A stretch of 64,000 nt of DNA from an uncultured Planctomycetales bacterium (GTDB lineage: Bacteria > Omnitrophota > Gorgyraeia > Zapsychrales > Aceulaceae): positions 3,056 through 67,055 of the forward strand of contig CAZYOA010000002.1 of the NCBI GenBank assembly GCA_964648665.1, given 5' to 3'. Numbering within the stretch: the stretch's first letter is position 1; each line of letters starts with the position of its first letter. The notes under the pieces are model-generated. The model was not told the origin of the DNA, made no database searches, and worked only from the letters and a program-made list of their open reading frames with translations. Positions 5,418 through 35,500 of the stretch are shown here, piece after piece. The translations under genes were made by a program, and so were the position numbers.

Positions 5418-6587
5418 CTATTTGCTAAACGGCATTGCCCAAAGATGGTTGAAGCCTTCAGCTAATTTTTGATCAAATTTATCTTTTTTGCCATACGTTG
5501 CTAGTTCTTCTTTGTATCGAGAGTGTTTTGATTTACGACCAACTACCATGCAGCTTCCCTTATAAAGCTTGAGACGAACAACACCCGTTGTAAATGCATG
5601 CACTTTATTAAAGTATGCATCAAGTTGTTCTTTTAGTGGAGTAAGCCACAGGCCGTTGTAGGTTAGCTCTGCATATTTTTGAGAAGCTTGAGTCTTGTAT
5701 CGCATAGTTTCGCGATCTAAAACAAGATTTTCAAGATCAGCTAAAGCTGTGTGTAAAATTGTTCCTGCAGGATTTTCGTATATTTCTCGTGACTTAATTC
5801 CTACAAGACGATTTTCTATCATATCAACACGTCCAACTCCGTTTTTACCGCCGATTTCGTTTAGCTTTTTTATGAGCGAGAATGGCTTATACGGTGTTCC
5901 GTTTATTTTTATTGGTATTCCTTTATTAAAAGTCACTTCAATGTATGTTGCTTTATTGGGTGCTTTCAAAGGAGATTGTGTCATCGTATAAATATTTTCT
6001 GGCGGTTCATTCCATGGGTTTTCCAAAACACCACACTCTATTGCGCGACCGTATATATTTGTATCAATGCTATAGGGACTTTTTTTAGTGACATTAACAG
6101 GTACGCCCATTTTTTTGGCATAATCCATTTCGTCTTCGCGCGTTTTAAATTCCCATGTTCGAACTGGTGCCATTATTTCCATTTTTGGAGCCATTAAGCG
6201 AAAGGTAGTTTCAAATCGTACCTGATCATTACCTTTTCCTGTGCATCCATGTGCAAGCGCATCAGCTTTTTCTTTTTTTGCAATTTTTACCTGATGTTTT
6301 GCTATTAATGGACGAGACAGAGCGCAAGCCAAATTGTATTTGCCTTCATACAGAGCGCCTGCTTTCAAAGCCAAAAGAACATAATTTTCTATGAGCTCCT
6401 TTTGAAGGTCAAGGCAATACACTTTTGACGCCCCGGACTTAAGAGCTTTTCTTTCGATCTTCTTGAAATCGCTACCCTGACCAACATTTCCAATAACGGC
6501 TATTGTGTTATAGCCTTTATTTTTTAACCAAGGTATTATGCATGAGGTGTCTAGTCCGCCCGAATAAGCTAAAACAACTTTTTTCAT
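5418..6587 (-). CDS. argG: argininosuccinate synthase
   Basis: 389 aa with the AYSGGLDTS PP-loop and GCTGKGNDQVRFE motifs. Confidence 0.93.
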   Translation of the reverse strand: MKKVVLAYSGGLDTSCIIPWLKNKGYNTIAVIGNVGQGSDFKKIERKALKSGASKVYCLDLQKELIENYVLLALKAGALYEGKYNLACALSRPLIAKHQVKIAKKEKADALAHGCTGKGNDQVRFETTFRLMAPKMEIMAPVRTWEFKTREDEMDYAKKMGVPVNVTKKSPYSIDTNIYGRAIECGVLENPWNEPPENIYTMTQSPLKAPNKATYIEVTFNKGIPIKINGTPYKPFSLIKKLNEIGGKNGVGRVDMIENRLVGIKSREIYENPAGTILHTALADLENLVLDRETMRYKTQASQKYAELTYNGLWLTPLKEQLDAYFNKVHAFTTGVVRLKLYKGSCMVVGRKSKHSRYKEELATYGKKDKFDQKLAEGFNHLWAMPFSK

Positions 6588-10675: not shown

Positions 10676-11689
10676 TTAAGAAATTCCTGTATTTTCTTTG
10701 AATCCACAAATAAGATTCATATTCTGAACAGCCTGACTTGAAGCGCCTTTCATTAAGTTGTCAATGGCGCTTGTAATAACAAGCATGTTATTTTTAACAG
10801 CAAGGCCAATGTCGCAATAATTTGTATTTGTGACATTCTTTGTTTCTGGTTGTTGCCCGGGCTTTAAAATGCGAACAAATTCTTCGGTTTTATAAAATTT
10901 TTGATAAAGTTTATAGACATCATTTATTGTTATCGATTTCTTAAGCTGAATATAAATTGTTTCTAAGATTCCGTAATTCATTGGAATTAAATGTGGAACG
11001 AATGTTATTTTAATATCTTTTTGTGCAAGCCGTGATAAATAAATGGAAATTTCAGGGGTATGTTGATGACATAGAACTTTGTAGGCTTTTAAGTTTTCAT
11101 TGGCTTCTGCATAGATAAGATTGATAGCGGTTTTTCGCCCTGCTCCTGAAACACTAGATTTTGCATCAATAATAATTGAATTAATTTTTTTGCCATGTAT
11201 GGCGACTAAAGGTGCAAGTGCTAAAATTGCTGCTGTTGGATAGCATCCTGGATTTGCAATAAAAGTTGATTTTTTAATTTCTTCACGATAAAGTTCGGGA
11301 AGCCCATAAACAGATTTTGGTAAATTCTTTTTATCTTTATGTGTGACTTTGTACCACTTTTTATAAGTTGCTGAATTCTTAATTCGATAATCAGCACTTA
11401 AATCAATAACCATTTTTTTGGCCTTGAGTAATCCTGGAGTGATTTCCATAGATTTTGTATGTGGGACAGCAACAAAGAAAAGATCGCAAAGACTTTTTGC
11501 TTTAGATAGATTAAACTTCTCACAGACTAGACGAGTTTTGCCTGCAAGCTCTGGATGAATATCAGAAATTTTACCTGTAGTTGTATTAGCGCTAGCATAA
11601 GTTACTCGTACTTCAGGGTGATTTAAAAGAATTTTTAAAAGTAACTTTCCCGAATAACCGCTGATACCAATAATTCCAACATTAAGCAT
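10676..11689 (-). CDS. argC: N-acetyl-gamma-glutamyl-phosphate reductase
   Basis: 337 aa with an N-terminal GISGYSG NAD(P) motif and catalytic Cys context ANPGCYPTA. First gene of the arg string. Confidence 0.9.
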   Translation of the reverse strand: MLNVGIIGISGYSGKLLLKILLNHPEVRVTYASANTTTGKISDIHPELAGKTRLVCEKFNLSKAKSLCDLFFVAVPHTKSMEITPGLLKAKKMVIDLSADYRIKNSATYKKWYKVTHKDKKNLPKSVYGLPELYREEIKKSTFIANPGCYPTAAILALAPLVAIHGKKINSIIIDAKSSVSGAGRKTAINLIYAEANENLKAYKVLCHQHTPEISIYLSRLAQKDIKITFVPHLIPMNYGILETIYIQLKKSITINDVYKLYQKFYKTEEFVRILKPGQQPETKNVTNTNYCDIGLAVKNNMLVITSAIDNLMKGASSQAVQNMNLICGFKENTGIS

Positions 11690-12791: not shown

Positions 12792-14234
12792 TTAGATCTT
12801 TATAGCTTGATTGGGCTCGATGAGCTCAGATTGACTAAATTGTTGATTTTGATCGTTTGTAGTTTTATCTAAGTCTAAAACACCTATAAAATTTGTTAAG
12901 GGGGTAATATTGATGATGATTGGTACAAAGCCATCAAAGGATGTAGGGTCGATATCTTGAAGATCCAACGGAATTGTAAATTCAATCTCTCCACCTATTG
13001 TCGTAATATTCATACTTTTTTCATTAAAATCAATACCGCCTTTTGTAAAGCTTGTTTTGTGGGATTGGATATTTGTAGTAATAATTTCATTTTCAGATCT
13101 TGATTTTATGGCGGATGATGAATTTGCGCTTAGAGAAGGAATCCAGAAAAATGTTTTATTCGAACGAATGCCTTTGATAGGAGTAAAGCGATCATTTTGC
13201 GCATGAAGGCTTTCTAGATGTGGGGCCTGATTATTTTTTGGATTGATTTGATTATTTAATGCAATGGTATTCATTAAAAAGATAAGCCATTTATCTGACA
13301 TTTTATTAATCAAATTAAATGCATTAGGATAGTTTTCGTAAAGTTTAATAATTAAATCTTTGTTGTTCATTAGAGTGTCGATATGTTCTTGTGTAAAATT
13401 TTCAGTCATTGCATCATAAACTTTTTGATCTTTAAGAAAAAGACGGAAAGCATTTAACTTGGCACGAACTTCACTGGGATCACTAAAATATTCAACGTGA
13501 GGATCGTTATAGTTGTCGTCGTAAATAGAGTGAAAAAGATAATTACTTGTTGATTCGAAAAGAAAATTTCCTGCTGCGTCCGAGGTATGCGACGCTTCCT
13601 CGACAAACGTTGATGGCGGTGCGTCTTCCCAGACTCCTGTAATCATAAGGCCGTTATCATGAAATCCTCTAACTTCTGCACTATCACTTTCTTTATAGCT
13701 TGAACTCTTTTTATAAAATTCTTGCAGAGAATCATATGGGAGGATTTTAAATTTAACGGCTTTATAATATTGCTTTCGCGCTGCATCAAGTTGTTCTGCC
13801 AATAATTCGACTTGTTCAACAGCCGCGCTGTCTCCAAGATAGAGGCGGGCTTCTTTTGTGAGTCGTTCAAAATATTTTGGTGAGTTCATGTAGGATTCAA
13901 AAAATTCTAATCCCTCGTTCTTTATGTTTTTTGTTTTCGTCGTATCTCCTGAGGTTTCATTGAATTTAGATTTAGAATCTTGATTCGCATATTGATCATT
14001 AAAATTAAATTTCTGATTTAAAATTTTAGATATTGGTAAAGAGTTTAAAAGATCGCGACTTTTCGCATTAACGTTTTGGATATTTAGAAATGCAAGAAAA
14101 AGAAAAGTTAAAAGTGAAGTTTTAAATATAGATTTCGATCTATGATGTTTTGAGGTTCTTATCATGCTGCTTGCGCTAGCAAAACTTTCTTTCGTTAATT
14201 CAAAATTACTTGAAGCGATATTGTTGGGGTTCAA
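12792..14234 (-). CDS. downstream (C-terminal) half of split giant paralog A; carries the family tail module
   Basis: The track ORF starts at a TTG. The same frame is stop-free for a further 144 codons up to 14666 with no ATG or GTG. The first ATG (14163..14165) precedes a signal-peptide-like segment MIRTSKHHRSKSIFKTSLLTFLFLAFLNIQNVNA|KS. The C-terminus carries GGIDFNEKSMNITTIGGEIEFTIPLDLQDIDPTSFDGFVPIIINITP (12870..13040), shared with the two other giants. Confidence 0.8.
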   Translation of the reverse strand: MNPNNIASSNFELTKESFASASSMIRTSKHHRSKSIFKTSLLTFLFLAFLNIQNVNAKSRDLLNSLPISKILNQKFNFNDQYANQDSKSKFNETSGDTTKTKNIKNEGLEFFESYMNSPKYFERLTKEARLYLGDSAAVEQVELLAEQLDAARKQYYKAVKFKILPYDSLQEFYKKSSSYKESDSAEVRGFHDNGLMITGVWEDAPPSTFVEEASHTSDAAGNFLFESTSNYLFHSIYDDNYNDPHVEYFSDPSEVRAKLNAFRLFLKDQKVYDAMTENFTQEHIDTLMNNKDLIIKLYENYPNAFNLINKMSDKWLIFLMNTIALNNQINPKNNQAPHLESLHAQNDRFTPIKGIRSNKTFFWIPSLSANSSSAIKSRSENEIITTNIQSHKTSFTKGGIDFNEKSMNITTIGGEIEFTIPLDLQDIDPTSFDGFVPIIINITPLTNFIGVLDLDKTTNDQNQQFSQSELIEPNQAIKI

Positions 14235-14635
14235 GAAGAAAGTGTTTTTGTATCCAACGCCAAGTAGACCTTCATTAGCAAGGAGATTTTCAAGTTCTGA
14301 ATTTAATACACCCTGGTTAAAGAAATCGTATTTTTGATTTTGCGAAGGGTCTGCGGAGGATTGATAGGTGTCAACTTTCTTTGAATCTAGTTCATATAAA
14401 ACATCTATGACTTTTGAATTCTCAAAAATTAATTTTAGATGTTCAAAATTATATTTTGGGGTAAAAATCCCATCTCGTTTTGTTTGTGGAAAAGCTTTTC
14501 TTGTGGCATTTCCGATACTATTTTTATTCTTTTTGCCCCTGTTTCCCGTGCCACATGACCAATAAATAACTCCACCATTTTTCTTAAGTACATTTTTTGA
14601 TTTTGATTTTGGATAATTAATAAGATATTGTGCGT

Positions 14636-17600
14636 CTAGAGTTCGAGGGGAAACTTTTTTTCTTTTTTATTTTCTTTTGGCACGCCAAAACTAGGCAATA
14701 ATTCAGATAAATCAACACCATCGGCACCATCAAGATAACCGAGATCTCCAGTCTTAAGGTCGAAAGTGTTATTGTTAAAAGAATCGCCGAGTATAACCGC
14801 GCTCCCGCTATCGCCGCCATGTCCTGCAATATTTAAATAATCAGTTGGAATCGTATTTTCAAGAATCCAATTAAATTCTTTTAGTCCTGAAGCCTCATAA
14901 TATAAAACTTGATATCCTCGCTTATCAAAATCTAAAATTGCATCTTCAACACTGTAGTGATTTTTGCTCTTAGAAAAATGAGGACCATCGCTTCTGCCAA
15001 TAATGAAAGTTGCTGTAGGGTGATTTTGATTTGGATTTTTTCTATTTTTGAGAATGATTTTAAGTGCTTCGGTAGAAAAGCGACTTGGAATAAGGATGCT
15101 GTGTTGTGCGAGTTCATAAATAAGCTTTAAGTCTTTAGGTGTCGATTGTTGAATGCCGCCCAAATTATCAATTGTTCTTTCTAGCTTTTTAACAGGAAGG
15201 TGATTTGTATTTTCTAAAAGAAGATTTGTTGCTTGCTTGTTTCCCGTTAAGGCAAGGCCGACAAGTTTTTGTAGAGCTGGTTCATTTACCTTTAAAGTTC
15301 CATCTTCGTTTTCGCTGTAGTGGTCAAAAACCATGCTTGCAAGAATAGCAATGTTTTTGGGGATCGGATTCTCAAAATAGAAATCTAGATTAAGATTCTG
15401 AAACTTATCAATAATTTTAAGTCTTGAAATAAATGAGTCATTTGTTGCAAGAACATCAAATGCTTCAATGTTGCCACTTTCTACTTCTGAAAAGAGCCAA
15501 TCTGCAAAATTTAGCAATATTTCTTGATTTTCTTCGTTGTTTTCAGAACCAAAAGAAAGAACATTAAGATTCCAGTCGATGAGGCTAAGATTGTTTTTGT
15601 ATTGTTCGATGATAGACTCAAGATCAAGATCATTAAAAACTTTTTCAGCTTTTTCAATATAGTAAGTATCAGCTAATAAATCTAGTGTTCGTATAGATTC
15701 CGGGTCCCCTTGGTTGCATTTCTGTTCAAGAAGCGAGTAATCCATTTCTTCAAATTTTTCTTTAAGGCTTTTATCTTGTCTAAAGCCTTCTCCTATAGTG
15801 CCATACGAGAAGATAAGAAGATTAAATATAGTATTATAGTTTCCTTGTTGGGCTGCCTTAATGTATAAATCGTGTGAATCATGAAAGTTTTTCTCAAGAT
15901 CTTCTATTGCTTTCTTAGCTTTCGGGTTCCAGGCCTCTAGGTCTCCCAAAGCGTTTAAGGCTGTGGGATCACCACTCTGAGCCTTTTGAATAATTATCGA
16001 TAAATCTAAGTTTCTAAGAAGTTTCATGTGAAGTTGAGCAGACCTTCCAAAAGTACCTTGTGGTCCCAAGGCGATGCATGCGGCAAAGATGACATCGTCT
16101 AGAGCTTTAACGCTTTCAATGTCTCCTTGTTCAATGCTATTTTGAAAGTATTCGTATCCTCCCTTTTGCATCCAATCTAGGAAATCTTCTGACAATTCAA
16201 GTTTCCATTTTTCTGATCCTTCAGCAATCAATTTTCGAGCAGCAATAATTGGCGCATAGGGGTTATTTTGAGTAACTTGATCCATAATGTCTTGATTGTC
16301 CATTTGCCTGATAGTTTCTTTTTCGGCAGAGCCTTCAGTGCTAACAATTCCTGTTAAATCTTCATACGCTTGTGCGTTGTGTTGTGACTTCATGTATTTA
16401 TTAGAAAATTTTACATCAAAGCCATTGCTTGAGATATGATCGTAGCTAAATTTATCAAAAGTCTTTTTTGAGACACTGTATCTATGGCCATCGATTTTTA
16501 TTGAATAATCATCGGCTCCGATGCTGTATCTACCACTGCTAAACATTCTGCTAGGAGAAGCGTTTTCTTTCCGTTTAGAATATTTATACTGATTCCATGT
16601 TTTAGATCGATGTACATATTTATTTTTTCGATTTGTAAGTTTTTTACTTATATATTCGTCTTCTAGCGTATAAAAATCATTGGCTTGGACATCGACTGTT
16701 TTATCTCCAATAGTGATTGTGTATTTCCATTCTTTAGTTGTTGCGTTATTTTGAGGGCCTTGAGAGAAATCAATTATTTCGCTAGATGTGAGGATATTTT
16801 CTAGTATATTTTCTATTTGAGATTTTTGTGATGAACTATTTCTTGCTTGCTCAGACTTAATGGGATCAATCTGACCATTCTGGTATGCTTGGGCTATAGC
16901 GCTTCCTGAAAATGTTAGCGCAATTGAAACAAGTGTGATGGCTGTTGCTTTTTTAAATTTCTTAATAATGGAGCTTGCGCTTTTTCTCCCCTTCGTACTG
17001 TTTGGTTTTATAATTTCAACATTTTTTGCACTGAAATTTCCAATAAGACCTCCAGAGAAATATCTGCGTTTGACATTTTTCTGTAAATAGGGGTCATATT
17101 CCTTCCGAACATAATTACAGACACCTTTATCCATAGCTGTAATGTATTGATCATAAATTTTATTTGAAATATCATCAACATCAATACCTTTAATTTTTTG
17201 TTTATCAGAATAAATTTTATTAATTATGAAATCTTTGAGATTATTCTTAAACCAATAAGCTAAAACTAAGGAATTGTAGATTTGACGAAGTTTGGCAAAA
17301 TTCTTTCCATAGTTGATTTCTTTGGTGAGTTCAGGAATAATAATTTCTCGAACAATTTCAGAAGCTAGTTTATTTTCAGTTTTTCCTTCAAAGTCTTCAT
17401 CCTCCATCAACGCCAAGTAATCTTGCTCGAGCATGACTTTAAGTTCACTTTTAACAATGAAAGCCTTGTTGCCTTGAACATAAATTTCAGCTTTTTGTGG
17501 CATAATCCAAACTTTATTAAATGTATCAATAGGGATATTTGTTGTCCCATACGTTTCGTATGCTTGTTTGTAGATTTTTTTCCAAAACTTTTTTCCAAGT

Positions 17601-18046
17601 TCATCTTCTGGGTAAATGAGCGATGCTGTAATTTGTTTTAATAAATAGTCTTGGGATAGCATGTCCGTTCCCATCTCTGTTTGAGCAAGAGCTTCTGGGA
17701 TCATACGATCCTTTTCGTATGGGGAAAGATTAACCCAGAGATTGTTTTCGGGGATGGTTAGGGCTGTTAAGAAGTATTTAATAAGTCTTTCGGATTCATT
17801 CTTTAGTTCGGAATCGGAAAGTTTTGTGTCTCCAGAGTTAACAATGAAATCAAGCTTAAGGGCATTCTCAGGATGAATTTTTATGCCTTGTATTACGACA
17901 GGGTTAGATGATTGGCTTGGTTTTATTATTGATCCAGGTTGCGGTAAGATTAGCGTATTTTGGGCATGAACATGATCTGTAAAGGTTGTCATGAGTAAAA
18001 AACATATGGCAAGGCATATGCGTATACATTTTGTTAATATATTCAT
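14636..18046 (-). CDS. giant paralog A, upstream half (1136 aa): signal peptide, family head module, Sel1-like repeats, first half of a caspase-like domain
   Basis: Signal peptide MNILTKCIRICLAICFLLMTTFTDHVHA|Q. Residues ~30-335 align with the N-termini of 25732..32403 and 32545..39009. The ORF ends 60 codons after an AGHGG motif. RBS GGGGAAAAGG lies before the ATG. Confidence 0.9.
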   Translation of the reverse strand: MNILTKCIRICLAICFLLMTTFTDHVHAQNTLILPQPGSIIKPSQSSNPVVIQGIKIHPENALKLDFIVNSGDTKLSDSELKNESERLIKYFLTALTIPENNLWVNLSPYEKDRMIPEALAQTEMGTDMLSQDYLLKQITASLIYPEDELGKKFWKKIYKQAYETYGTTNIPIDTFNKVWIMPQKAEIYVQGNKAFIVKSELKVMLEQDYLALMEDEDFEGKTENKLASEIVREIIIPELTKEINYGKNFAKLRQIYNSLVLAYWFKNNLKDFIINKIYSDKQKIKGIDVDDISNKIYDQYITAMDKGVCNYVRKEYDPYLQKNVKRRYFSGGLIGNFSAKNVEIIKPNSTKGRKSASSIIKKFKKATAITLVSIALTFSGSAIAQAYQNGQIDPIKSEQARNSSSQKSQIENILENILTSSEIIDFSQGPQNNATTKEWKYTITIGDKTVDVQANDFYTLEDEYISKKLTNRKNKYVHRSKTWNQYKYSKRKENASPSRMFSSGRYSIGADDYSIKIDGHRYSVSKKTFDKFSYDHISSNGFDVKFSNKYMKSQHNAQAYEDLTGIVSTEGSAEKETIRQMDNQDIMDQVTQNNPYAPIIAARKLIAEGSEKWKLELSEDFLDWMQKGGYEYFQNSIEQGDIESVKALDDVIFAACIALGPQGTFGRSAQLHMKLLRNLDLSIIIQKAQSGDPTALNALGDLEAWNPKAKKAIEDLEKNFHDSHDLYIKAAQQGNYNTIFNLLIFSYGTIGEGFRQDKSLKEKFEEMDYSLLEQKCNQGDPESIRTLDLLADTYYIEKAEKVFNDLDLESIIEQYKNNLSLIDWNLNVLSFGSENNEENQEILLNFADWLFSEVESGNIEAFDVLATNDSFISRLKIIDKFQNLNLDFYFENPIPKNIAILASMVFDHYSENEDGTLKVNEPALQKLVGLALTGNKQATNLLLENTNHLPVKKLERTIDNLGGIQQSTPKDLKLIYELAQHSILIPSRFSTEALKIILKNRKNPNQNHPTATFIIGRSDGPHFSKSKNHYSVEDAILDFDKRGYQVLYYEASGLKEFNWILENTIPTDYLNIAGHGGDSGSAVILGDSFNNNTFDLKTGDLGYLDGADGVDLSELLPSFGVPKENKKEKKFPLEL
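14654..14660 (-). other. candidate -1 recoding site, or homopolymer indel site, joining the two halves of giant paralog A
   Basis: In gene orientation the sequence is ...GAA AAT AAA AAA GAA AAA AAG TTT CCC CTC GAA CTC TAG. The heptamer A_AAA_AAG lies in the zero frame of the upstream ORF. A -1 slip, or one extra A in the A7 run, reads on as GTT TCC CCT..., which is exactly the frame of ORF 12792..14234. Confidence 0.5.
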
Positions 18047-19189: not shown

Positions 19190-20209
19190 TTAAGAATTCT
19201 TTTTGATAAGTTCTTCGGCAATTTGAATGGCGTTAAGGGCAGCGCCTTTTCGAAGATTGTCAGAAACAACCCAAAGATTTAGTCCGTTTTCAACAGTGTT
19301 GTCTTCTCTGATACGTCCAACAAATGTATCGTCTTTTCCTTCTGCGTAAAGCGGTGTTGGGTATTGATTATTTTCAAGATCATCAATAACGGTAATGCCA
19401 GGTGCATCTTTTAAGAGATCGATAGCTTTCTGACGAGTGATTTTCTTTTTTGTTTCAATATTGATTGATTCGGAATGAGCGCGAACAATAGGAACTCGAA
19501 CGCATGTTGCTGTTATCTTAATTGACTCGTCTCCCATAATCTTTTTTGTTTCGTTAACCATTTTAATTTCCTCTTTGGTGTAAAATCCTTCTTGAGGAAT
19601 ATCGATGTGAGGAATAAGATTATAGGCAATTTGATATTGAAATTTATTAATATCATTATCATTTATAGCTTCGCCATTCGCAATCTTTTTTTGTTGAGCG
19701 TTAAGCTCTGCAATGGCTGGTGCACCTGCTCCAGATACAGACTGATATGATGAAACAATAACTCGTTTAATCGTTGCGAAATCATGCAATGGTTTTAAAG
19801 CAACAACCATTTGAATTGTTGAGCAATTTGGATTGGCAATAATGCCTTTATTTTTGCTAATGTCGTTAGGATTAACTTCTGGAACGACCAAGGGAACATC
19901 TTCATTCATTCGAAATTGACTTGTGTTGTCAATTACAACAGCTCCAGCTTTTACAGCCGATGGTGCGTATTCTTTGCTAATGGCAGATCCAGGAGAAAAA
20001 AGAGCAATTTCTACGCCTTTAAAGGCATCATGTGTCAGCTTAACAGCTTTAAATTTTCGTCCTTGAAGTTCATATTCAGGGCATTCTTCTGGTCGAGATG
20101 ACATCGGATAAAGTTCGTTAATAGGAAAATTGCGCTCGTCAAGAATTTTAAGCATTTCTTGACCTACCGCTCCTCGAATACCTACAATAGCAACATTATA
20201 TTTCTTCAT
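19190..20209 (-). CDS. asd: aspartate-semialdehyde dehydrogenase
   Basis: 339 aa with an N-terminal IVGIRGAVGQ motif and catalytic Cys context ANPNCSTIQ. Confidence 0.92.
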   Translation of the reverse strand: MKKYNVAIVGIRGAVGQEMLKILDERNFPINELYPMSSRPEECPEYELQGRKFKAVKLTHDAFKGVEIALFSPGSAISKEYAPSAVKAGAVVIDNTSQFRMNEDVPLVVPEVNPNDISKNKGIIANPNCSTIQMVVALKPLHDFATIKRVIVSSYQSVSGAGAPAIAELNAQQKKIANGEAINDNDINKFQYQIAYNLIPHIDIPQEGFYTKEEIKMVNETKKIMGDESIKITATCVRVPIVRAHSESINIETKKKITRQKAIDLLKDAPGITVIDDLENNQYPTPLYAEGKDDTFVGRIREDNTVENGLNLWVVSDNLRKGAALNAIQIAEELIKKNS

Positions 20210-25731: not shown

Positions 25732-28700
25732 TTATTGGATAAGGGTAGAAACGCTAGGAGCAGGAGAAATGCTGATAATCATAGGCCAAAAGCCCTCAAC
25801 TATATTCCAGTCTATGTTTTCGAATTCCCTTGGAATACGAAATGCTATACTGTTCCCTGATGTTTTTATATTCATATTTTTATCATTAAAATCGATACCA
25901 CCTTTTCGCATCTCGTTGTTTGTTGTAAGAAGCGAAGATGCTGATTTTGGATTGATATTAGAATTCCCGCTTTCTGTAGAATTTTGAATTCCTGGATTCT
26001 TGACTTGAACTGTATTTGTTTCATTTTGCGATGTCGATGGGATAACGGGCTCTGTAGCGTTAGAAGAACCGTTCGCTGGCTGCTCTGCCGTAGAATTTTC
26101 TATAAGCGGTTTTATTAAGCTGTCTAAATTTCTTAATTTATTCGAAAGTTCTTTAGCGCTCATGTTTTCAAAAAGATAACTAGCTGATATAAGCGCTTTT
26201 ACGACCGAATGCATTTGATCATATGTTGAGCGCGTAATAATCTTTAATCTTCTTAAAGTTTTTAAGAAGCTTAAAACTTTATTTATATGGCCAATGGCGC
26301 CTCCATTTTTTGAAGTATTATTTTTTTTAATAATTTTGCCAAGAATGGGAATGTTCTCATATTTCTTTACAGTGTTTTGAAAGTTGCTTAAGAAATTGAG
26401 TATTCTCTTTTTATTTCGATCGCTAATGCGCGCAACTCCACCCAAATCAATGATGTTTATTTTTTCAGAACTAATAATAACGTTTCCAGTATGAAGATCC
26501 AAATGGAAAACACCATCAATAAATATTTCAGCTAAAAGTTCATCTCGTAATTCGCCTAGCACTTCATCTGCTCGCGGATCATTTTGTTTTAGAAATTCTT
26601 TTAAGCTTATGCCTTCAACATAAGGTTCCAGGATAGCTGTATTGTTAATCGTTATCTCTGCGACCGGACAGTTAATCTTGCTTCCTCGTTTCTTCATGTT
26701 GGCACTTAGGGTCTCTTGATTGATTTTTTCGCCTTTAAAATTAAGCTCATCTAAAATCATGTTCTCAATGGCCTTTGAAAGTCCTTCTGGAAGATCTATG
26801 AATTTTTCACGCTTTAATTGTCTTAAAGATCGCCTTAAAATCTTAAAATCTTCTTTCCAGACTTTATCTACTTCTGGTCTTTTAATTTTTAAAACCCAAA
26901 GCTTTTCATCGATCTCAACTAAAAAAACATTTTTAATGGATGCATCTCCTAGTCGTTTTTTAATTTTAACGATTTTTCCAGGAAATAATTTCTTTGCATA
27001 ATCTAAAACTGTTCCTATCTCTGATGGATTCGCTTGATCTTTTAAGGAGCTAAGGGCATCTTTTATTTCGTCAGAAAAATTTAATCCTGGGATATCAACA
27101 AGAAGCTGTCCAAGCTTAACGCCGATAACACCATATATTTCTAGAAATTGTTTTATAAAAACGGCTTTTTGTTTTTGTTCAGAGCTTTTTTGAGTAAAAT
27201 CAATTTTTTGTTGCCCATTAATAAGGGCGAGCAAAACAGATTTTTTCTTTTCTGCAGAGCTGAACTTTAAAACAGTGTCGAAAATGGTTTTGAGCCCTTT
27301 GTTCTCAGATGAACCTTCTGGTATAAATTTTTCAAAAACTGTATCTAAAATTTCTTTATAAATAATATCGTCGGCTACAACGCCTCCTGGACCATCAAGA
27401 AACATTTCAAGCATTTTTTTATGAGATACGTTTCCAATGCTTGGATAATAGGATGATTTTAACTCTTCAAGATTTTCCTTTAAATATGTTAGATTGATTT
27501 CGTACTTTTGTTCAATTACAGATAAAGGTTCAGGCTTTTTATCTGATATGCCCATAAGCCAAAGAAGGATATTCTTTTTGCTTCTTGGATTCATGTCTCG
27601 GATAAGCTCAAAGACCTTATCTTCAAGAAAGGTAAATTTTCGATGTTTTTCTTGATCGGCGCTGCTTAAAAAAGAAAGCATATATTGTCGCGTTTTTGCA
27701 TAGATGGAAGAATCCAGAATGTTTTCATCTTTAAGAAAATCATTGAGAATGTCATCTCTTAAATAAGACGGATCCGGAAAATATATTTCAGTGATTTTGG
27801 CGAGATGTTTTTCGGGATCTTTAAAATCTTCAGGGTTTAGCTGCCGGTCCTTTTCAAGAGCTAGAAGTGAATACTTTTCTTTAAAATGAATACTTGAGAA
27901 AATATGCATGACTGTTTTAAAGCGTTCGAATGTGCCATCTTCAAATTTCATTAATTCTGTCAAATAATAATCTCGAACTCTGCTTTCTTCTGGAAATAGA
28001 TCTGTGATATATGATAACTTAGAATCAAAATCCATTTTATTGTCTTTTACCACTTCATCTAAATATGGCTTAAACATATGTGGAATTCCGATTTCAACAT
28101 GAAGAAAGTTTCCATAGATATCATCAAACAAAGGATTTTTAAGTTTGTCTTCGGGTATTTTTTTATTATTCTTGCTTTCGGCTTTCTTCTGATCATCATC
28201 TTCTTCTTTGTTTCTTTGGGTTGCCTCAATCACAAGAAGAAGCAACTCTTTAAAGCCAAACTCTTCGCTTAGTAATTCAGGCATGACATGTCGTATAAGA
28301 AATCCATATTTTTCTCGTAAGACTTCTTTCTTTTCCTCTGTATAGGCATCCCCTATTAGAATGATAAATTTTCTTATAAAGGAAGGTACGTATTTTGACC
28401 AGTCACCAAATAGAACTTTATAGATTGATCGTGCTGTTTTATTAAAAAATAGATTTTTTGAAATGTAATCTTGAGTAAATTTTTTTCCTTCATTCTTAAT
28501 AACATCGGCGTTTTTAATATCGTCTAGAAGAGGCTCATAATCTAAATGCTTAACAATGTTTTTCCATTTCTCGAGTATTTCTTTTATTGATTTGTCATTC
28601 TTGTCTTTGGCTGTTGTATTCAACATTGCGGCATTAACAGCTTTAAGATCAAATTTATTAACAGCATCAGGCAGGATAGATTTCAGATTTCGATCGTAAA

Positions 28701-31700
28701 ATATTGCGTAAACAAAAAGATTGATAACGTGTTTTGGCACTTTGTACATCTTCATCAAATCTGCCATTTCTTCGCATGTGCCATCAAAGCTTAAACGATC
28801 AAAAAATCTAAAGTCTGACCACATGTCACCCTCCTCTGGCGAAAGAATTCTCTTAAGTCTTTCTTTGTCTTGAGTTACATAAAAGGCTCTATACCACGAA
28901 AAGATTCCAAAAAGGTCTAAACTTTCATGCTGAAATCCGTAAGCTACAGAAACACCATTGCTGCCGTCAAGTGCCCAAAATAAGTTTTCTGTATATGTGT
29001 TTATGTCATATCCAAAAGGTAGCTCATAGTTAGGGTCTAGTTTGATTTCTCGAGATCTGATAACTTTTTTTAGTAAAATCTTTTCTTCTTCAGACCAGTT
29101 TTCTCTTCTCATGTTAGCTGCTTGATTAATAAACCAGAAATAATAAATGAGAGCCGCAGCTTTCCAAGATATAGTATTTATGTCAATGTTTGCGTCTCTA
29201 ATTTTCAAATCTTTAATTTTTGACAACACAAATTCTTTGCCACCATTTATATCTGGAACGTAACTTTTTAATTCTTTATAACCACTAGACCCTAGCCAAT
29301 TTATTATGGTTTCATTTTTTTCAGCTTTTTCTTTTTTGTTGTTAGGGATTTTTCTTTCGAGAAGCTCATAAAGTAAGTCAAAAAGTTTTTCTTTAGGCAG
29401 ATTACTATTTGTGTACAGATAATTAAAGCGTGAATAAACCCACGTATCGTTATCAATAAATCCAATAGTTAAGTATTCTCTTAGATCATCGAGATTGTCG
29501 TAGTCAATATTTTCTTGCTTAAGGAAGGATGTAAAGTTAGACGGAAAAGATCGATCTTTAAAGTTTGAACGAGAATATTTGTCGTAAAGTATTTCAAAAA
29601 GCCATTTGCGGGAATTTGGACTCTTTTTCATTAGTTCTTCAAGAAAGAAGTATTCGTTATTCTGTCCGTAAAAGGTTCCTCTGCCTGCATTTCCTAAATC
29701 GATATACAGAGATAAAAAGGGTTTAGTTAAATTTTTAGTTTTTGCCATAAACGAGAACACAAGTTCTTGTGCATCTCCAGCGCCTCTGAAAGAATTTTCT
29801 TTAATCTTATGATTCTTATTCTTGATACTTGCTATTTTATTTAAGAGTAAAATAAATTTTTTAAGTTGATTGATGTCAACGCTTTCGTTTGCATAAACCT
29901 GACCAGCTTTTTGCATGAGATAGGTATCTTCAAACCAAAATAAACTTTCGTAAAGATCACCTAAATCTAGATTAAGATGGCTTTCGATATCGTCATAGGA
30001 TAGGGCTTCAAAGTCTTTGTACCAGTCGGTTTTTGGTTTAAGATAATTTGAAATCATTAATTGTATAATTTTGTCTGTAACATGAGGCAATCGCTCGGTG
30101 ATTGCATTTTTTAGTGAATCTGAAATTTCCTCTTTCTCGGTAAATACCGAACGTTGATTGATCCTTTCCTCGATAGACATATTCATGTTTGAAATGTTGT
30201 TAAATGATGCATTGTGGTGCTCAACGGTTCGAAATCGTGCCTTTTGAAAAAGATTTAATAAATCAACTTGAAAGCTTTTATCTGTAGGGTTAAGTGACTG
30301 GATTTCTTTAATATAATCTTTTTCTGTAAACACTATTCCTTTATTTTTTTTAATGCGTTTTTTTAAAGTTTTTGTATCTTGAAAGAAATCGGCGGAGAAC
30401 TTTTGTGGTTTTAAGTCATATGTTGGCCAGTATTGATTTAAAAGAGCATCTTCAAGCCTCGCAACTCTTCTAGCTAAGGTTGGATAATGAATTCCTGCAA
30501 GACTAACGGCTTTGCTTGACATCCCTTTTATTTTTAAACGTTCGCTAAAGAACTTTGTTGATTCCTGAACATTAAATCCTGCTTTTTCCATCAATGAAAG
30601 AATTGCTAAGTCTGATGCTGTTTCATTTGAATATCGATCGACAATTCCATTGATAGTTTTTATAACATTATTATGGCCTTTTTCTTTCTCTTTTTTCTTT
30701 CGATTTTCTTCTGGGTGTGCTATGGCTCTTAAAATATGTCCAGTTTCGTGTGCCAATATTGACGCCAAAACATCTTTAGAGAAGTTTTTTTCTGTCATGT
30801 GGGACAACAAGCCCGCGTTGACAATAATATGACTGCTATGTGGAATGATGCAAGCATTGACAGATGGATCACCAACAATTGATAATTCAAAAAGTTGTGG
30901 ATCCAAACCTGCTGCAGTCAGAATTTTGTCTAGTATTTCTCTAACTTCTTTATGCATTTTATTCTGCTTGCTTAGTTTTCCAGCTTCACTGATCCATTCT
31001 CGCATATATTTATCAGCATCTTCTTGAAGAAAAAAATAGTCATCAAGGCTAATGTTACCATTTTCTTGGATTTCAGGCTCAGATCCTGGAATAACCATAT
31101 TAAAAATATTCTTAACAGATGAGATGTTGTTCGATGCTGATAAGTTTGAAGATATAGAACGAAAGCCTGATTCACCATTTTCATCTTTAGAAGGATTTGC
31201 AACGAACATGATATTTGTTAGATCTTGATTGCCGTATTTGCTTAACAGCATGGATCTAGATCTTGCGCTTTGTGTGAAATTTATATTTTCTCCGATTTCT
31301 AAGTTTGTGACATTGACACCACCAGAAAAATATTTTCTTGGAACATTTTTTTTCTCGTATTTATCGTATTCAACTTTAACAAAGTCACAAATTCCCTTTT
31401 TAAAGGATTTTATATATTGTTCGTAGATGTCTTTTGATAGGTTGGCAGCACTTACTCCTTCTATTTTAATCTTATCAGTATAAACTTTACTAAAGATAGA
31501 ATTTTTAAAACTATTTTTAAACCAATACGCTAAGATTAAAGAATTATAAATCTGTCTAAGTTGAGCGAAGTTTTTGCCCTGATTGACTTCTTTTTCTAGA
31601 GCAGGGATGACAACCTCACGGACAATTTCGGAAGCAAGTTTATTGTTGGCTTTCTTATTAGTATTACTTGATTGAACTATGTCCCTTGCTTTTAGCGCTT

Positions 31701-32403
31701 GGGACTGCGAAGCGTCCCCTGTGGATTCCTCATCGTGCTGTAATGCTACATAATCCTCTTCAAGCATAACCTTTAGTCGCGCTTGTACGATAAATGCCCG
31801 ATCATTTTTTACATAAACTTCGGCATAGTCCGGAATGATCCAAACTTTGTTAAAAGTGTCAATTGGGATATTGGTCGTGCCGTATTTCTCATAAGATTTT
31901 TTATAAATTCTTCGCCAGAATTCTTTTCCTAATTCATCTTCAGGGTAGATTAAAGAGGCCGTAACTTGTTTCAGCAAATAATCTTGAGCTAGCATATCTA
32001 TGCCGAGATCTGTTTTTGCAAGAGATTCTGGAATGATTCTATCTTTTTCATAGGGTGATAAGTTTACCCATAAATTGTCATCAGGAATTGTTAAAGAGGC
32101 CATAAAATATTTAATAAGTTTTAATGCTTCAGGCTTGAGATCATCAGATTTTAGTTCTGTATCGCCAGAATCAACAATAAAATCAAATTTAAATGCATTT
32201 TCGGGATGTAATTTAATTCCCCTTAATATGACGGGCGTAAAGCCAGAGCTTAAAGAAACGATATTCCCTGGCGCAGGTAGTCCTAATGTGCTGAGTTGGG
32301 CTAAGGCATAAGATGGGCAGAGGCTATTTATGCCAAAAAATAGAATTATGGCTAGACAGATAATTTTGAAAGTTTGCGATTTTTTATAATAAAAGTAAAA
32401 CAT
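25732..32403 (-). CDS. giant paralog B (2223 aa): signal peptide, family head, M48-like HExxH peptidase, long helical region, UbiB/ABC1-type kinase domain, family tail
   Basis: Signal peptide ...LCPSYALA|Q and head at aa ~36-362. The M48 pattern is VNACIIPHSSHIIVNAGLL...LASILAHETGHILRA (HETGH at 30736..30750) plus HYPTLARRVARLE. The ABC1 pattern is GVKLGQLL...LKDQANP...LGDASIKNVF...LKIKRPEV...ILDELNF...GVFHLDLHTGNVII...IIDLGG (26380..27147). The tail is GGIDFNDKNMNIKTSGNSIAFRIP...GFWPMIISISP at the very C-terminus. Confidence 0.9.
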   Translation of the reverse strand: MFYFYYKKSQTFKIICLAIILFFGINSLCPSYALAQLSTLGLPAPGNIVSLSSGFTPVILRGIKLHPENAFKFDFIVDSGDTELKSDDLKPEALKLIKYFMASLTIPDDNLWVNLSPYEKDRIIPESLAKTDLGIDMLAQDYLLKQVTASLIYPEDELGKEFWRRIYKKSYEKYGTTNIPIDTFNKVWIIPDYAEVYVKNDRAFIVQARLKVMLEEDYVALQHDEESTGDASQSQALKARDIVQSSNTNKKANNKLASEIVREVVIPALEKEVNQGKNFAQLRQIYNSLILAYWFKNSFKNSIFSKVYTDKIKIEGVSAANLSKDIYEQYIKSFKKGICDFVKVEYDKYEKKNVPRKYFSGGVNVTNLEIGENINFTQSARSRSMLLSKYGNQDLTNIMFVANPSKDENGESGFRSISSNLSASNNISSVKNIFNMVIPGSEPEIQENGNISLDDYFFLQEDADKYMREWISEAGKLSKQNKMHKEVREILDKILTAAGLDPQLFELSIVGDPSVNACIIPHSSHIIVNAGLLSHMTEKNFSKDVLASILAHETGHILRAIAHPEENRKKKEKEKGHNNVIKTINGIVDRYSNETASDLAILSLMEKAGFNVQESTKFFSERLKIKGMSSKAVSLAGIHYPTLARRVARLEDALLNQYWPTYDLKPQKFSADFFQDTKTLKKRIKKNKGIVFTEKDYIKEIQSLNPTDKSFQVDLLNLFQKARFRTVEHHNASFNNISNMNMSIEERINQRSVFTEKEEISDSLKNAITERLPHVTDKIIQLMISNYLKPKTDWYKDFEALSYDDIESHLNLDLGDLYESLFWFEDTYLMQKAGQVYANESVDINQLKKFILLLNKIASIKNKNHKIKENSFRGAGDAQELVFSFMAKTKNLTKPFLSLYIDLGNAGRGTFYGQNNEYFFLEELMKKSPNSRKWLFEILYDKYSRSNFKDRSFPSNFTSFLKQENIDYDNLDDLREYLTIGFIDNDTWVYSRFNYLYTNSNLPKEKLFDLLYELLERKIPNNKKEKAEKNETIINWLGSSGYKELKSYVPDINGGKEFVLSKIKDLKIRDANIDINTISWKAAALIYYFWFINQAANMRRENWSEEEKILLKKVIRSREIKLDPNYELPFGYDINTYTENLFWALDGSNGVSVAYGFQHESLDLFGIFSWYRAFYVTQDKERLKRILSPEEGDMWSDFRFFDRLSFDGTCEEMADLMKMYKVPKHVINLFVYAIFYDRNLKSILPDAVNKFDLKAVNAAMLNTTAKDKNDKSIKEILEKWKNIVKHLDYEPLLDDIKNADVIKNEGKKFTQDYISKNLFFNKTARSIYKVLFGDWSKYVPSFIRKFIILIGDAYTEEKKEVLREKYGFLIRHVMPELLSEEFGFKELLLLVIEATQRNKEEDDDQKKAESKNNKKIPEDKLKNPLFDDIYGNFLHVEIGIPHMFKPYLDEVVKDNKMDFDSKLSYITDLFPEESRVRDYYLTELMKFEDGTFERFKTVMHIFSSIHFKEKYSLLALEKDRQLNPEDFKDPEKHLAKITEIYFPDPSYLRDDILNDFLKDENILDSSIYAKTRQYMLSFLSSADQEKHRKFTFLEDKVFELIRDMNPRSKKNILLWLMGISDKKPEPLSVIEQKYEINLTYLKENLEELKSSYYPSIGNVSHKKMLEMFLDGPGGVVADDIIYKEILDTVFEKFIPEGSSENKGLKTIFDTVLKFSSAEKKKSVLLALINGQQKIDFTQKSSEQKQKAVFIKQFLEIYGVIGVKLGQLLVDIPGLNFSDEIKDALSSLKDQANPSEIGTVLDYAKKLFPGKIVKIKKRLGDASIKNVFLVEIDEKLWVLKIKRPEVDKVWKEDFKILRRSLRQLKREKFIDLPEGLSKAIENMILDELNFKGEKINQETLSANMKKRGSKINCPVAEITINNTAILEPYVEGISLKEFLKQNDPRADEVLGELRDELLAEIFIDGVFHLDLHTGNVIISSEKINIIDLGGVARISDRNKKRILNFLSNFQNTVKKYENIPILGKIIKKNNTSKNGGAIGHINKVLSFLKTLRRLKIITRSTYDQMHSVVKALISASYLFENMSAKELSNKLRNLDSLIKPLIENSTAEQPANGSSNATEPVIPSTSQNETNTVQVKNPGIQNSTESGNSNINPKSASSLLTTNNEMRKGGIDFNDKNMNIKTSGNSIAFRIPREFENIDWNIVEGFWPMIISISPAPSVSTLIQ

Positions 32404-32544: not shown

Positions 32545-35500
32545 TTATGTGCTTTGTAAGGCTAATTTTTGATCTTTGTTTTCTTGATCATCTAGGCCTA
32601 AAAGGCCTGTAAAGCTTGTTATAGGAGTTATATTAATGATGACAGGAGTGAATCCATCGATATTGGTGAGATCAACATTTTGCATATCAAGAGGAATATC
32701 AAAATCGATCTGCCCTCCTTTTGTTGTTATGTTCATATTTTCAGCGTTAAAGTCAATTCCGCCGGTTGACGAGATATTCTTTGAGGATTTTGTATCCGCG
32801 TTTGGCGCGTCACGAGATAGAATAGATTTAATCATTGGATTATTTTCTAAAAGCTCTTCCGAAATCACTCGAACTGTTTCCAAACCCGAATTTCTTGCTT
32901 TTTCGACTAAACTCTTTGCATCCTCAATATACAGAAGCTGCTTTAAGGACACAATGCCAATTCTATTACTTTGATCTAAAAGACTGTCTTGTGCCTTTAA
33001 GAATTCAAATAATCTCTGATAAACATTTGGGTCCTTTTTGCTGACGCCTAATATTATTGGGCTAATGCGTTTATATTTCGCTAAAAACTTTAGTTCATGC
33101 ATAGCCATTAATATATTGTAAGTTATGCTATGCATATTAGTAAAAATCTCTACTCTAAGGCCTTTTGCTTCTAATTTCTCCAATAATTCTTTTCTACCTT
33201 TTATAGGCTTATAGAATCTCACTAAGAAGTCTTGTAAGAGTGGTCTTTGTTTTTCTTTTTGTGCTAAATATATATTTCTTCTTCTATGTTGAACAGAATC
33301 CGGTGTATGTGCTGCAAACAACTCCTCCATGCTCCTTAAGGCATACTCCCAATATGCTTTCTCATATTCTGGTTTTGTTCTATATTTGGCAGCCTCCTCA
33401 CCTGTTTTGAATACATCTACTAATTTATTTATATCGCTAATGCCAAAATATTCTCCAATATATTCAATCCCTTCAGCTATGCCATCAGTAACGAGAGTGC
33501 CAGTTAAATCTGAAATAATCATTTTTACTTCTTTTGCTGTCGTCGCATCATCACCTGTACGTCTAGACCCCGGCTCGCCTACTGTTTTTATTTCCGATGA
33601 TGCAATCTGACTGCTTGAGGCTTTCTTTAATCCAGTAGATTTTTCAACTAAAAGCTGTCTTCCTTCGTTTTCAGTAAAAACCTCTAAATCTTTATTTTGT
33701 AAAATAGAAGTGAACATCATAGCTGTCATGTCGTAAAATTCAGAAGGAAGAAAAGTGTCTCCCTGGCTTACGCCAAGAATTTCTCCTTGATCCAAAATAT
33801 CTGTATTTAATTTTCCGAATAAAATATTGTTTTCGTTTACACTGTTATTCGGAGATAACGAGACCTGAAATGCTAATAATGGATTTTGATTTGCTTTCTT
33901 AGCATTTAAAATCCATCCTGTTTCCACTCCCCCCTCTGGCAGGTTGTCAACATTATCATTTTCATCAAAGAGCGCATTGTAATAATCTTCGCCTTTTTCG
34001 TTAAAGTGTTGAACAAAGAGATCCTTGATAATTTCTTTTCCTGGGAAAAAGAAAACAATTGGATGTTGTTTCTTTCGAACAGCATCTGTTTTTGCTGCTA
34101 AGAAGTGACGTCCAAAAATTGGTTTCTTTTCTTCGTCACTGCCTCGTTCTTTCCTAACTGTTTTTATTATGGACCTTAAGTAATCGGCCTCTTTTCCAGA
34201 CCCAGGTTCTCCTCTATCAGCTTCAGAAACTGTGACTTGTGGATTTTGTGAGAATTTCTGATTTAAGAAATGAGTAAAAGACCAATTGTGATTATAGGAA
34301 TCACAACTAAGATTGAAGAAGCGTGTTTGACTAAAATCTCCAGATTCACTTAGAGCGCTTGCTATTTCTTCGTAGTTTAGGTATTCTCCATAATCAAAGG
34401 CAAGGCGATTTGCTGTGATATCTAAGAAATGTGAAATTTTGTTAAATGCGTCTTGATCGTAAGCTGTTTTTAAATATTCTTTAATTTCATCTAAGTCTGC
34501 AATGAGTTTCATTTGCTCATGCTCTTCTTCTGCAAAGTTGTTGTCGACTAAATTTTTATGCAAAGCTTCCCAGCCAATGTCGTAGTTCTCCACTTCATCT
34601 CGTTCAAAAATTGGCGTATTGTGTCCTCTGAAAAGAACGACTCTTGACCCGCGGCTTGCTTTCAAGGCTTTAATAACATCTTCTTTTTTATCTTTCCCTC
34701 CTTTAAAAGAAAATATTTTATCTTCAAGAACTCCTCCTAATTCTGCAAGTTCTTCTGCTTCTTCGACGAGAAATTTTTCCTCTACGTTTAGAATGTTAAT
34801 GACTGTTGTGTTTTTGTCGTAATATATTTCGTTGCCGCTAATTTTTTGAAAATCAATAGCTAAGGAAATAGCATTGTTGATATGTTCGTTATCGTAAGGC
34901 ATTTTTGATCCCGCAAGAATTCTTAGCGAGGAGATGAGAAGTGAGATTTTTTCATTTTTTGTTTTCTTCTTAAGTTTTCTAGAAAAACCTAGATCTTTAC
35001 TAAAAAAGAAGTCTGAATTTCTTTGGACAATATTATCTGCGTATTCAAAAACAACATCAGGATTATTCTCAAGAATTTCAACGAGTCCACTTGTGAATTC
35101 TTCTTGAAGATCTTTTGATCTAAATTTTGCATTAAAGTTTTGAAGGCCAAAGATAGGAGATTTCCCGATAAGGCCGAGTAAGATTTGAGGTTGTTTTTCG
35201 CTTTCAAAATAAGAGTAAGCCCAAAATTTTATGGCAAGATCGGGGTGCTTGTTCATAGCATCTTTTAGTATTTCTCTAAAATCATTGATGTCTTTAAAAA
35301 ATGGTGCAATATCAAGAAAATTCTTAATGAGCTCTTTTGCATATTTGTCGGGGTTTTTCTTTATATTGTTAGCCAAGTTTATGTAATAAAGCTCTTCAGG
35401 ATCGGATATTTCTTTATTTTTATTTTTATTTGTTCTTTGGAATTTTATAGCTTGATCATTTTCTTTTTGAGGTTTCAAGTTTTGATTGCCTTGTTTTGCT

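Follow-up and report, generated by a model that had tools for sequence, protein, structure and literature searches.

A putative caspase-like domain divided by a reading-frame break in a giant modular gene of an uncultured Omnitrophota bacterium

The window analyzed here, a 64,000-nt stretch of DNA from an uncultured Omnitrophota bacterium (in a record labelled uncultured Planctomycetales), contains on its minus strand a very large gene, here called gene A, that is divided between two reading frames, with a predicted caspase-like protease domain lying across the division. An upstream open reading frame (ORF) closes at a TAG at 14638..14636, and a second frame, shifted by -1 relative to the first, is open from 14666 to a stop at 12792; conceptually joined, the two give a product of 1751 amino acids (aa) with a putative catalytic pair, His1076 and Cys1165 (features are collected in Table 1). 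The upstream ORF carries TATFIIGRSDGPHF...GYQVLYYEA...YLNIAGHGGDSG, and its final 150 residues read ...TATFIIGRSDGPHF...KRGYQVLYYEASGLKEFNWILENTIPTDYLNIAGHGGDSG...PKENKKEKKFPLEL up to the stop; ...NIAGHGG stands near the end, its His encoded by the CAT at 14821..14819. The other frame (-1) reads KRKKVSPRTLDAQYLINYPKSKSKNVLKKNGGVIYWSCGTGNRG... and contains NGGVIYWSCGTGN; there the Cys of the ...VIYWSCGTG motif is encoded by codon 38, a TGT at 14555..14553. An initial annotation made from the letters of this DNA had quoted peptides and coordinates for both frames, and all of them proved correct on the minus strand. Public gene callers report only a 457-aa piece of the downstream frame, starting from an ATG at 14165, and ~430 nt of gene A coding sequence, catalytic Cys included, is left unannotated in public records.

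The change of frame is confined to 31 nt, from a -1-frame TAA at 14669..14667 to the 0-frame TAG. The overlap of the two frames (14666..14636) holds the heptamer A_AAA_AAG at 14660..14654 in the 0-frame slippery phase (0-frame codons GAA AAA AAG), and the 0-frame stop follows within 5 codons of it. Around this site lies a Lys-rich loop insert that none of the 13 homologs described below has: the His-to-Cys spacing is 89 aa in A vs 45-55 aa in the homologs, and in an AlphaFold2 (AF2) model the per-residue confidence (predicted local distance difference test, pLDDT) is <50 across the insert (model residues 141-174). The frame break is between the putative catalytic His and Cys, whose codons stand on opposite sides of the A6-G-A7 tract, as the initial annotation had proposed, and it is inside the A-specific loop insert.

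The break is not peculiar to one assembly. The exact 1136-aa and 457-aa products occur in 5 public contigs, and we compared the window with three of the contigs that carry gene A: L010 (ENA ERZ27316756), L011 (ENA ERZ27316679, 124.6 kb) and L012 (a Logan assembly of SRR8862235). Three further sample accessions and two pipelines, Logan and one that gives megahit-style k141 contigs, stand behind them. Elsewhere we counted 4-9 positions of difference between each contig and the window, but in all three the A6-G-A7 tract and the whole of gene A are identical to those of the window. Because three other assemblies hold the identical tract, the break is not an assembly error; it is genuine in the population. 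No intact version of gene A was found among the representative proteins or in the JGI metagenomes. The differences that do separate these contigs tend to be clustered: L010 shows seven clustered substitutions in asd (window 20122..20168), and L011 and L012 have four clustered substitutions in common at window 5496..5559, a pattern that suggests short recombination tracts or collapsed strain variants. In L010 one T is also absent at window 20681, which splits leuB into calls of 213 aa and 126 aa.

When 1.84 billion representative proteins were searched exhaustively with phmmer, the upstream ORF was recovered (P0001), together with 13 weak matches (E 4e-6 to 8e-4), most of which align as two separate segments that flank the break. 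In all 13 homologs (P0002-P0014) the domain is uninterrupted and its two halves are contiguous, with the motifs RF..L..I.KNR, GRPLAVIVYxKxDhNGAF, GYRVMYYEA, LLVxGGHG, GxIVLxSCSTGxG, NIANxLRxxFPQA and GIFAPT. His-Gly and Cys-x-x-Gly are invariant in all 14 aligned sequences (A plus 13 homologs) at a pairwise identity of ~30%; the check on conservation of the His and Cys that the initial annotation had proposed thus came out in its favor in 13 of 13 homologs. We then built a profile hidden Markov model (HMM) from the 13 homologs, which come from unrelated genomes, with A excluded, and searched it against the 914 six-frame fragments of the window. Just two fragments were matched: the upstream frame gave E 3.9e-14 over model positions 6-116, and the downstream frame E 3.6e-19 over positions 135-216. 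The next best fragment had E 0.44, and the agreement far exceeds chance. Since a model made only from homologs matches both frames in sequence, the two ORFs carry consecutive halves of one domain.

The named sources of the homologs are Ca. Aceula meridiana and metagenome-assembled genomes (MAGs) of Candidatus Omnitrophota and Candidatus Margulisbacteria, and others come from unbinned metagenome contigs. Throughout the family the proteins are nameless or called 'hypothetical protein', and most clusters are singletons. Outside the Omnitrophota giants the module forms the C-terminus of much smaller proteins, some with HEAT or DUF4116 repeats, and several of these non-giant homologs have N-terminal hydrophobic leaders that we read as signal peptides. 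A word-indexed homolog search found nothing for A, profile and P0003 queries of the same kind returned only P0004 and P0003, and no ortholog of the joined segment was found in a scan of JGI metagenome contigs.

That the two ORFs were once one gene, as the initial annotation had argued from the position of the His and Cys, is also evident at the scale of the whole protein. Gene A is one of three giant tandem-region paralogs in the window, all on the minus strand, the others being B (32403..25732, 2223 aa) and C (39009..32545, 2154 aa). The three have in common only their first ~390 aa (55-67% identity) and their last ~90 aa, and their middles are unrelated: that of B holds a Peptidase_M48 domain and an ABC1/UbiB-type kinase domain, and that of C a HAD hydrolase domain. 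In the layout of the family a signal peptide and a conserved N-terminal domain of ~330 aa come first; a transmembrane (TM) segment follows near residue 370-390, and beyond a variable middle lies a conserved C-terminal domain of ~90 aa. In gene A the family N-terminal domain is on the upstream ORF and the family C-terminal domain, at 12795..13130 on the minus strand, is inside the downstream frame. Further, P0009 (MDP8266488.1), listed as a hypothetical protein of 2046 aa in Ca. Aceula meridiana, aligns collinearly with joined A over three blocks, namely its N-terminal domain, its protease module and its C-terminal domain; the protease module (A 917-1231, P0009 1217-1506, E 1e-9) is uninterrupted in P0009. 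With a collinear P0009 and family termini split over two ORFs, the two ORFs are pieces of one gene.

We regard gene A as a member of an Omnitrophota family of large modular envelope proteins with a variable enzymatic middle. In blastp comparisons the N-terminal module of A is 55-60% identical to those of B and C, and in tblastn it is 39-52% identical to nine loci in MAGs labelled Candidatus Omnitrophota or uncultured Planctomycetales, where it is often multi-copy; no Pfam model covers it. A genome scan found paralogs of the N-terminal domain only, none with the protease module. Members of the family are also broken in other Omnitrophota or 'Planctomycetales' MAGs. L005 has a frame change right after the N-terminal domain, at 11286..11395, and L009 has an in-frame TAA at 10430 and a frame change at about 10812..10915, both inside the N-terminal domain; these breaks are either pseudogenes or MAG assembly errors. 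Stop-codon reassignment was considered for the in-frame stops of L003 and L009 and rejected, because these stops, both TAA and TAG, mostly coincide with the normal ends of genes. A literature search turned up no account of the domain or of the break in papers on Omnitrophota giant genes.

Table 1. Features of gene A in the window (His1076 and Cys1165 are numbered in the joined product)
Feature	Position	Strand	Basis or content
Gene A, whole	18046..12792	minus	Two frames joined
Upstream ORF, 1136 aa	14636..18046	minus	Signal peptide, family N-terminal domain, TM segment, repeat region, N-terminal protease half
N-terminal module, aa 1-392	16871..18046	minus	Signal peptide; TM at aa 367-385 (hydropathy)
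Protease domain, N-terminal half	14783..15115	minus	Leading helix, strands hhhIG(R)SD, GYQVLYYEA and YLNIAGHG; HMM and AF2
Putative catalytic His codon (His1076), Gly next	14819..14821	minus	Invariant; aligns with caspase His of S-H-G
A-specific Lys-rich loop insert FGVPKENKKEKK/VSPRTLDAQYLINYPKS, contains the break	14604..14689	minus	Alignment; absent from all 13 homologs
A6-G-A7 tract AAAAAAGAAAAAAAG, site of the -1 change	14654..14668	minus	Same letters in L010, L011 and L012
Downstream frame, shifted by -1 and open for 624 codons	12792..14666	minus	Remainder of gene A
Protease domain, C-terminal half, -1 frame	14358..14609	minus	Strand GGVIYWSCGTG, helix NATRKAFPQ, strand GIFTP, closing beta-hairpins
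Putative catalytic Cys codon (Cys1165)	14553..14555	minus	Invariant; aligns with caspase-1 Cys285
Internal signal-peptide-like or short hydrophobic segment MIRTSKHHRSKSIFKTSLLTFLFLAFLNIQNVNA, after internal Met	14064..14165	minus	Gene callers' downstream start

The domain itself appears to be a very divergent clan-CD-type cysteine protease domain whose nearest curated family is DUF4347, a reading based on sequence comparison to which we give a probability of about 0.9. Because joined A has no direct Pfam match, the link to clan CD runs through the family profile. DUF4347 is matched by nine of the 14 family members, and P0003 (36.2 bits) and P0008 (28.3 bits) exceed its gathering score of 24.6; the other Pfam matches, all over the His/Cys region, are to CHAT (five members), Peptidase_C14 (two) and Peptidase_C80 (one). 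The family consensus, made from the 13 outside homologs, scores 27.2 bits against DUF4347 (gathering score 24.6) and 27.1 bits against Peptidase_C14 (gathering score 21.4), with 21.7 bits against CHAT, under the gathering cut-off of 24. Against all PDB chain sequences the family profile matched 49 chains at E <=10, ~40 of them caspases (best E 0.001), and in these alignments the family GGHG falls on the caspase S-H-G and "vill.SC" on the caspase-1 "VIIIQAC", that is, on His237 and Cys285. In A, YLNIAG-H-G precedes GVIYWS-C-GTG, which is the dyad order of clan CD; both residues come straight after hydrophobic strand residues, and a Gly follows the His. With the 14-sequence alignment, AF2 gave a model with pLDDT 73.8 and a predicted template modelling score (pTM) of 0.77, the N-terminal half reaching pLDDT 87-97, whereas the single-sequence model of A had pLDDT 32.6. 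The order of elements in the model is strand-helix-strand-helix-strand(His)...strand(Cys)-helix-strand-hairpins, as expected of the caspase-hemoglobinase fold.

Several results weigh against this assignment. Joined A has no match in Pfam, NCBIfam, PADLOC or PDB sequences, and neither joined A nor A without the loop insert matches any Pfam family, DUF4347 included, even at E <=10. The initial annotation had held that the lack of a clan CD, CHAT or Peptidase_C14 match for the joined sequence would refute the domain, and for A alone there is indeed none; the statistical relationship to clan CD holds for the family and extends to A only transitively (family HMM E 4e-14 and 4e-19). The Foldseek comparison that it had also proposed gave no significant PDB match (best E 0.078), and the non-significant list includes some unrelated alpha/beta folds along with, among its top entries, the cysteine protease domain (CPD) of TcdB. 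An hhalign comparison of the family alignment with a single caspase-3 sequence reached a probability of 2.8%, the His again being aligned, a value that is uninformative with a template of one sequence. Any protease activity of the A domain is likewise putative. These same results are what one would cite for a coincidental pair of His and Cys motifs on a non-protease, Rossmann-like domain. We consider such a coincidence very unlikely, however, given a His-Gly and a Cys-x-x-Gly that do not vary over sequences only ~30% identical, a consensus above the Peptidase_C14 gathering score, PDB sequence matches that are nearly all caspases with both catalytic residues aligned, and a His-to-Cys spacing in the homologs close to that of caspase-1, where H237 and C285 are 48 residues apart. 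Thus, the caspase-like clan CD domain that the initial annotation had seen in A stands at the level of the family, through its DUF4347, CHAT, Peptidase_C14 and Peptidase_C80 matches and the alignment of its His and Cys with the caspase SHG and QAC.

What the break does to the gene follows from the downstream frame. There is no ATG, GTG or TTG in the -1 frame between 14666 and 14235, so a ribosome can reach the Cys half only out of the upstream frame, which leaves either frameshifting or no active protease. The initial proposal that only a frameshifted or repaired product would be an active protease is therefore upheld as regards the Cys, the activity of that product being putative. Independent expression of the downstream part from the ATG at 14165 was considered and rejected, since it would exclude the Cys and lacks a Shine-Dalgarno (SD) sequence: nothing SD-like was seen 5' of this ATG, whereas many genes in the window have one. 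The MIRTSKHHRSKSIFKTSLLTFLFLAFLNIQNVNA segment that follows this Met lies ~50 aa beyond the protease domain, and through it the full-length protein may cross the membrane a second time; P0009, too, has a short hydrophobic stretch directly after its protease module. On the other side of the domain, just 5' of it, aa 640-945 of gene A (about 15210..16128, minus strand) hold six spaced (Q/S)-G-(D/N)-x6-L repeats, such as QGDIESVKAL, SGDPTALNAL and QGDPESIRTL, that resemble Sel1-like or HEAT-like helical repeats. These repeats have no Pfam match, and when aa 400-985 were compared with the HEAT-repeat regions of the homologs no significant homology emerged.

Our preferred explanation of the break, with a probability of about 0.6, is an inactivating homopolymer frameshift, which would make gene A either a pseudogene of recent origin or a gene whose slippage-prone tract is in its OFF state. 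Loss of a base, or an equivalent -1 shift, in the A6-G-A7 tract would have occurred within the lineage-specific Lys-rich loop. As encoded, translation stops five codons on, and the resulting protein of 1136 aa has only half of the protease domain and lacks both the Cys and the C-terminal module. Its protease would thus be off, spontaneous slippage on A_AAA_AAG would supply at most a few percent of full-length product, and the break may be reversible. It appears to be recent: the 624 downstream codons are still open and the family-invariant residues are intact. Broken family members in other MAGs (L005 and L009) fit a rapid turnover of the family. Programmed recoding, for its part, appears to be absent. 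The heptamer occurs in slippery phase ~20 times in ordinary genes of the window, asd and leuB included, in a genome of 35% GC; these occurrences make up 33% of in-frame AAA-AAG pairs vs 35% expected from third-position A usage, so there is no avoidance. At such a background frequency the heptamer is not a distinctive frameshift signal in this genome. The minimum free energy of the 40 and 60 nt after the heptamer is 0.0 kcal/mol, and a direct reading of the 25 nt 5' of it (GGCGTGCCAAAAGAAAATAAAAAAG) shows no SD-like motif. Three observations tell against simple inactivation: the site is a textbook -1 slippery heptamer in the right phase with a 0-frame stop no more than 5 codons on, neither the 624-codon downstream frame nor any invariant residue is damaged, and the same allele is present in every assembly. 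All three would be equally expected if frameshifting were used. However, the sampled genomes are ~99.95% identical and nearly clonal, so the persistence of the allele and the intactness of the frame discriminate neither way.

A first alternative is programmed -1 ribosomal frameshifting at A_AAA_AAG, which would make a 1136-aa protease-dead product and a minor, active product of 1751 aa. It would account for a canonical heptamer in phase with a stop 5 codons downstream, for a 624-codon frame that is open with its catalytic motifs intact, for the lack of any alternative start codon and for one sequence across four assemblies. We nevertheless think it unlikely, because the in-phase heptamer is as common as chance in housekeeping genes (asd, leuB and others), no stem-loop or pseudoknot is predicted (0 kcal/mol over 60 nt), no SD-like element precedes the heptamer, and other family members are broken in other MAGs. 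The site, further, is common to no ortholog or paralog, none with the region being found in the collections searched, and the break falls within the catalytic domain rather than at a domain boundary, so that the short product ends in half a fold; we know of no two-product frameshift gene whose short product does so. If A_AAA_AAG were nonetheless a working recoding switch, an idea we regard as improbable, a low set rate of -1 frameshifting or of slippage on the A tract would be the sole route to the Cys. Most of what the cell made would then be a scaffold devoid of protease activity, accompanied by a little active caspase-fold protease joined to the C-terminal module. The break would be a translational safety catch within the active site of a protease, and the giant envelope protein concerned would belong to an Omnitrophota nanobacterium that is probably host-dependent.

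Phase variation, in which slipped-strand mispairing in the A tract would alternate an ON (A8) and an OFF (A7) state with the assemblies showing OFF, is also doubtful. Large signal-peptide-bearing paralogous protein families are commonly phase-variable in other bacteria, and here the break falls exactly in a homopolymer of a member of such a family while the remainder of gene A is intact. On the other hand, A7 is short for efficient slipped-strand switching, the tract is unremarkable in a 64-kb window with >80 A or T runs of at least 7 bases, and the ON allele is absent from the 1.84 billion representative proteins and from the four contigs. A dropped homopolymer A in a gene that is in truth uninterrupted is the least credible explanation and already largely refuted: homopolymer indels are a common class of error and the 1-nt leuB indel of L010 shows that indel discrepancies occur among these assemblies, but the same tract is found in the window and in three contigs from different samples and two pipelines, and the protein collections hold no intact version.

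The frame break is thus most likely ordinary decay in a fast-turning paralog family, and its recognition corrects public calls of 1136 aa and 457 aa, which are two pieces of one 1751-aa gene. The domain that it divides links unannotated 'hypothetical' proteins from Omnitrophota, Margulisbacteria and unbinned metagenome contigs to the caspase fold and to DUF4347, and the invariant His/Cys dyad gives part of the variable cargo of the Omnitrophota giants a testable function, that of a cysteine protease. The giant genes themselves are flanked by housekeeping genes (rplM, rpsI, truA, asd, leuB, fabF, fabG and arg genes).

Compared with known systems, the break site resembles -1 frameshift sites of the dnaX and IS3 type in its identical heptamer A_AAA_AAG, its correct phase and its nearby 0-frame stop. 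It differs from them in having neither a stimulatory structure nor an SD-like element, and in a heptamer that is not under-represented in ordinary genes of the window and for which the searched collections offer no ortholog that would attest conservation.

The best-scoring Pfam family for the homologs is DUF4347, whose match spans the GYxVxYYE, GHG and SCSTG strands, but A does not score as a member at the membership cut-off of 24.6 bits, and the family described here has an extra N-terminal helix (RFS..L..I.KNR) and C-terminal beta-hairpins with FPQA that lie outside the DUF4347 match. DUF4347 (PF14252) occurs in Pseudomonas aeruginosa PA0256, a putative Hcp-delivered type VI secretion system effector, and is uncharacterised (PMC8262886); the literature we found treats it only in those terms. 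Caspases and metacaspases (Peptidase_C14, MEROPS clan CD) have the same hydrophobic strand with His-Gly followed ~45-55 residues on by a strand with Cys and the same predicted beta-alpha-beta order, and the family profile aligns with the caspase-1 dyad and the caspase-3/6 SHG. In A the predicted layout would be a first strand hhhIGxSD, a second GYxVxYYE, a third ending in G-H-G and a fourth ending in S-C-x-T-G. The similarity to caspases is, however, remote (PDB E-values of 0.001-1, Foldseek not significant), the spacing in A is 89 residues, and neither a p20/p10 linker nor Asp-specificity residues are recognizable.

CHAT (PF12770) is approached from another side. Five of the 14 members match it over the His/Cys region (best E 4.6e-5), and P0002, P0006 and P0014 have HEAT repeats N-terminal to the protease domain. 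Repeats followed by a caspase-like domain are typical of CHAT proteins, which are often fusions with TPR or HEAT-type repeats. The best member nevertheless reaches 21.4 bits and the consensus 21.7, under the cut-off of 24 bits, A has no CHAT match, and the PADLOC defence models gave none either.

The self-processing C80 CPD of MARTX and of TcdA/TcdB, finally, would be of the same fold class, and it likewise belongs to a secreted modular protein of very large size whose termini are conserved and whose enzymatic modules vary. The initial annotation had suggested a self-processing protease in a multi-effector protein, a suggestion that is not supported: similarity to Peptidase_C80 is marginal (one of 14 members, E 0.005; A none), and B and C have termini of the A type with no HMM match to the domain, which is not what a processing module common to the family would give. 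With the protease module carried by A and P0009 and not by B and C, it appears to be one variable cargo or effector module rather than the processing engine of the family, and it is in their conserved ends and swappable enzymatic middles that these giants resemble polymorphic or MARTX-type toxins.

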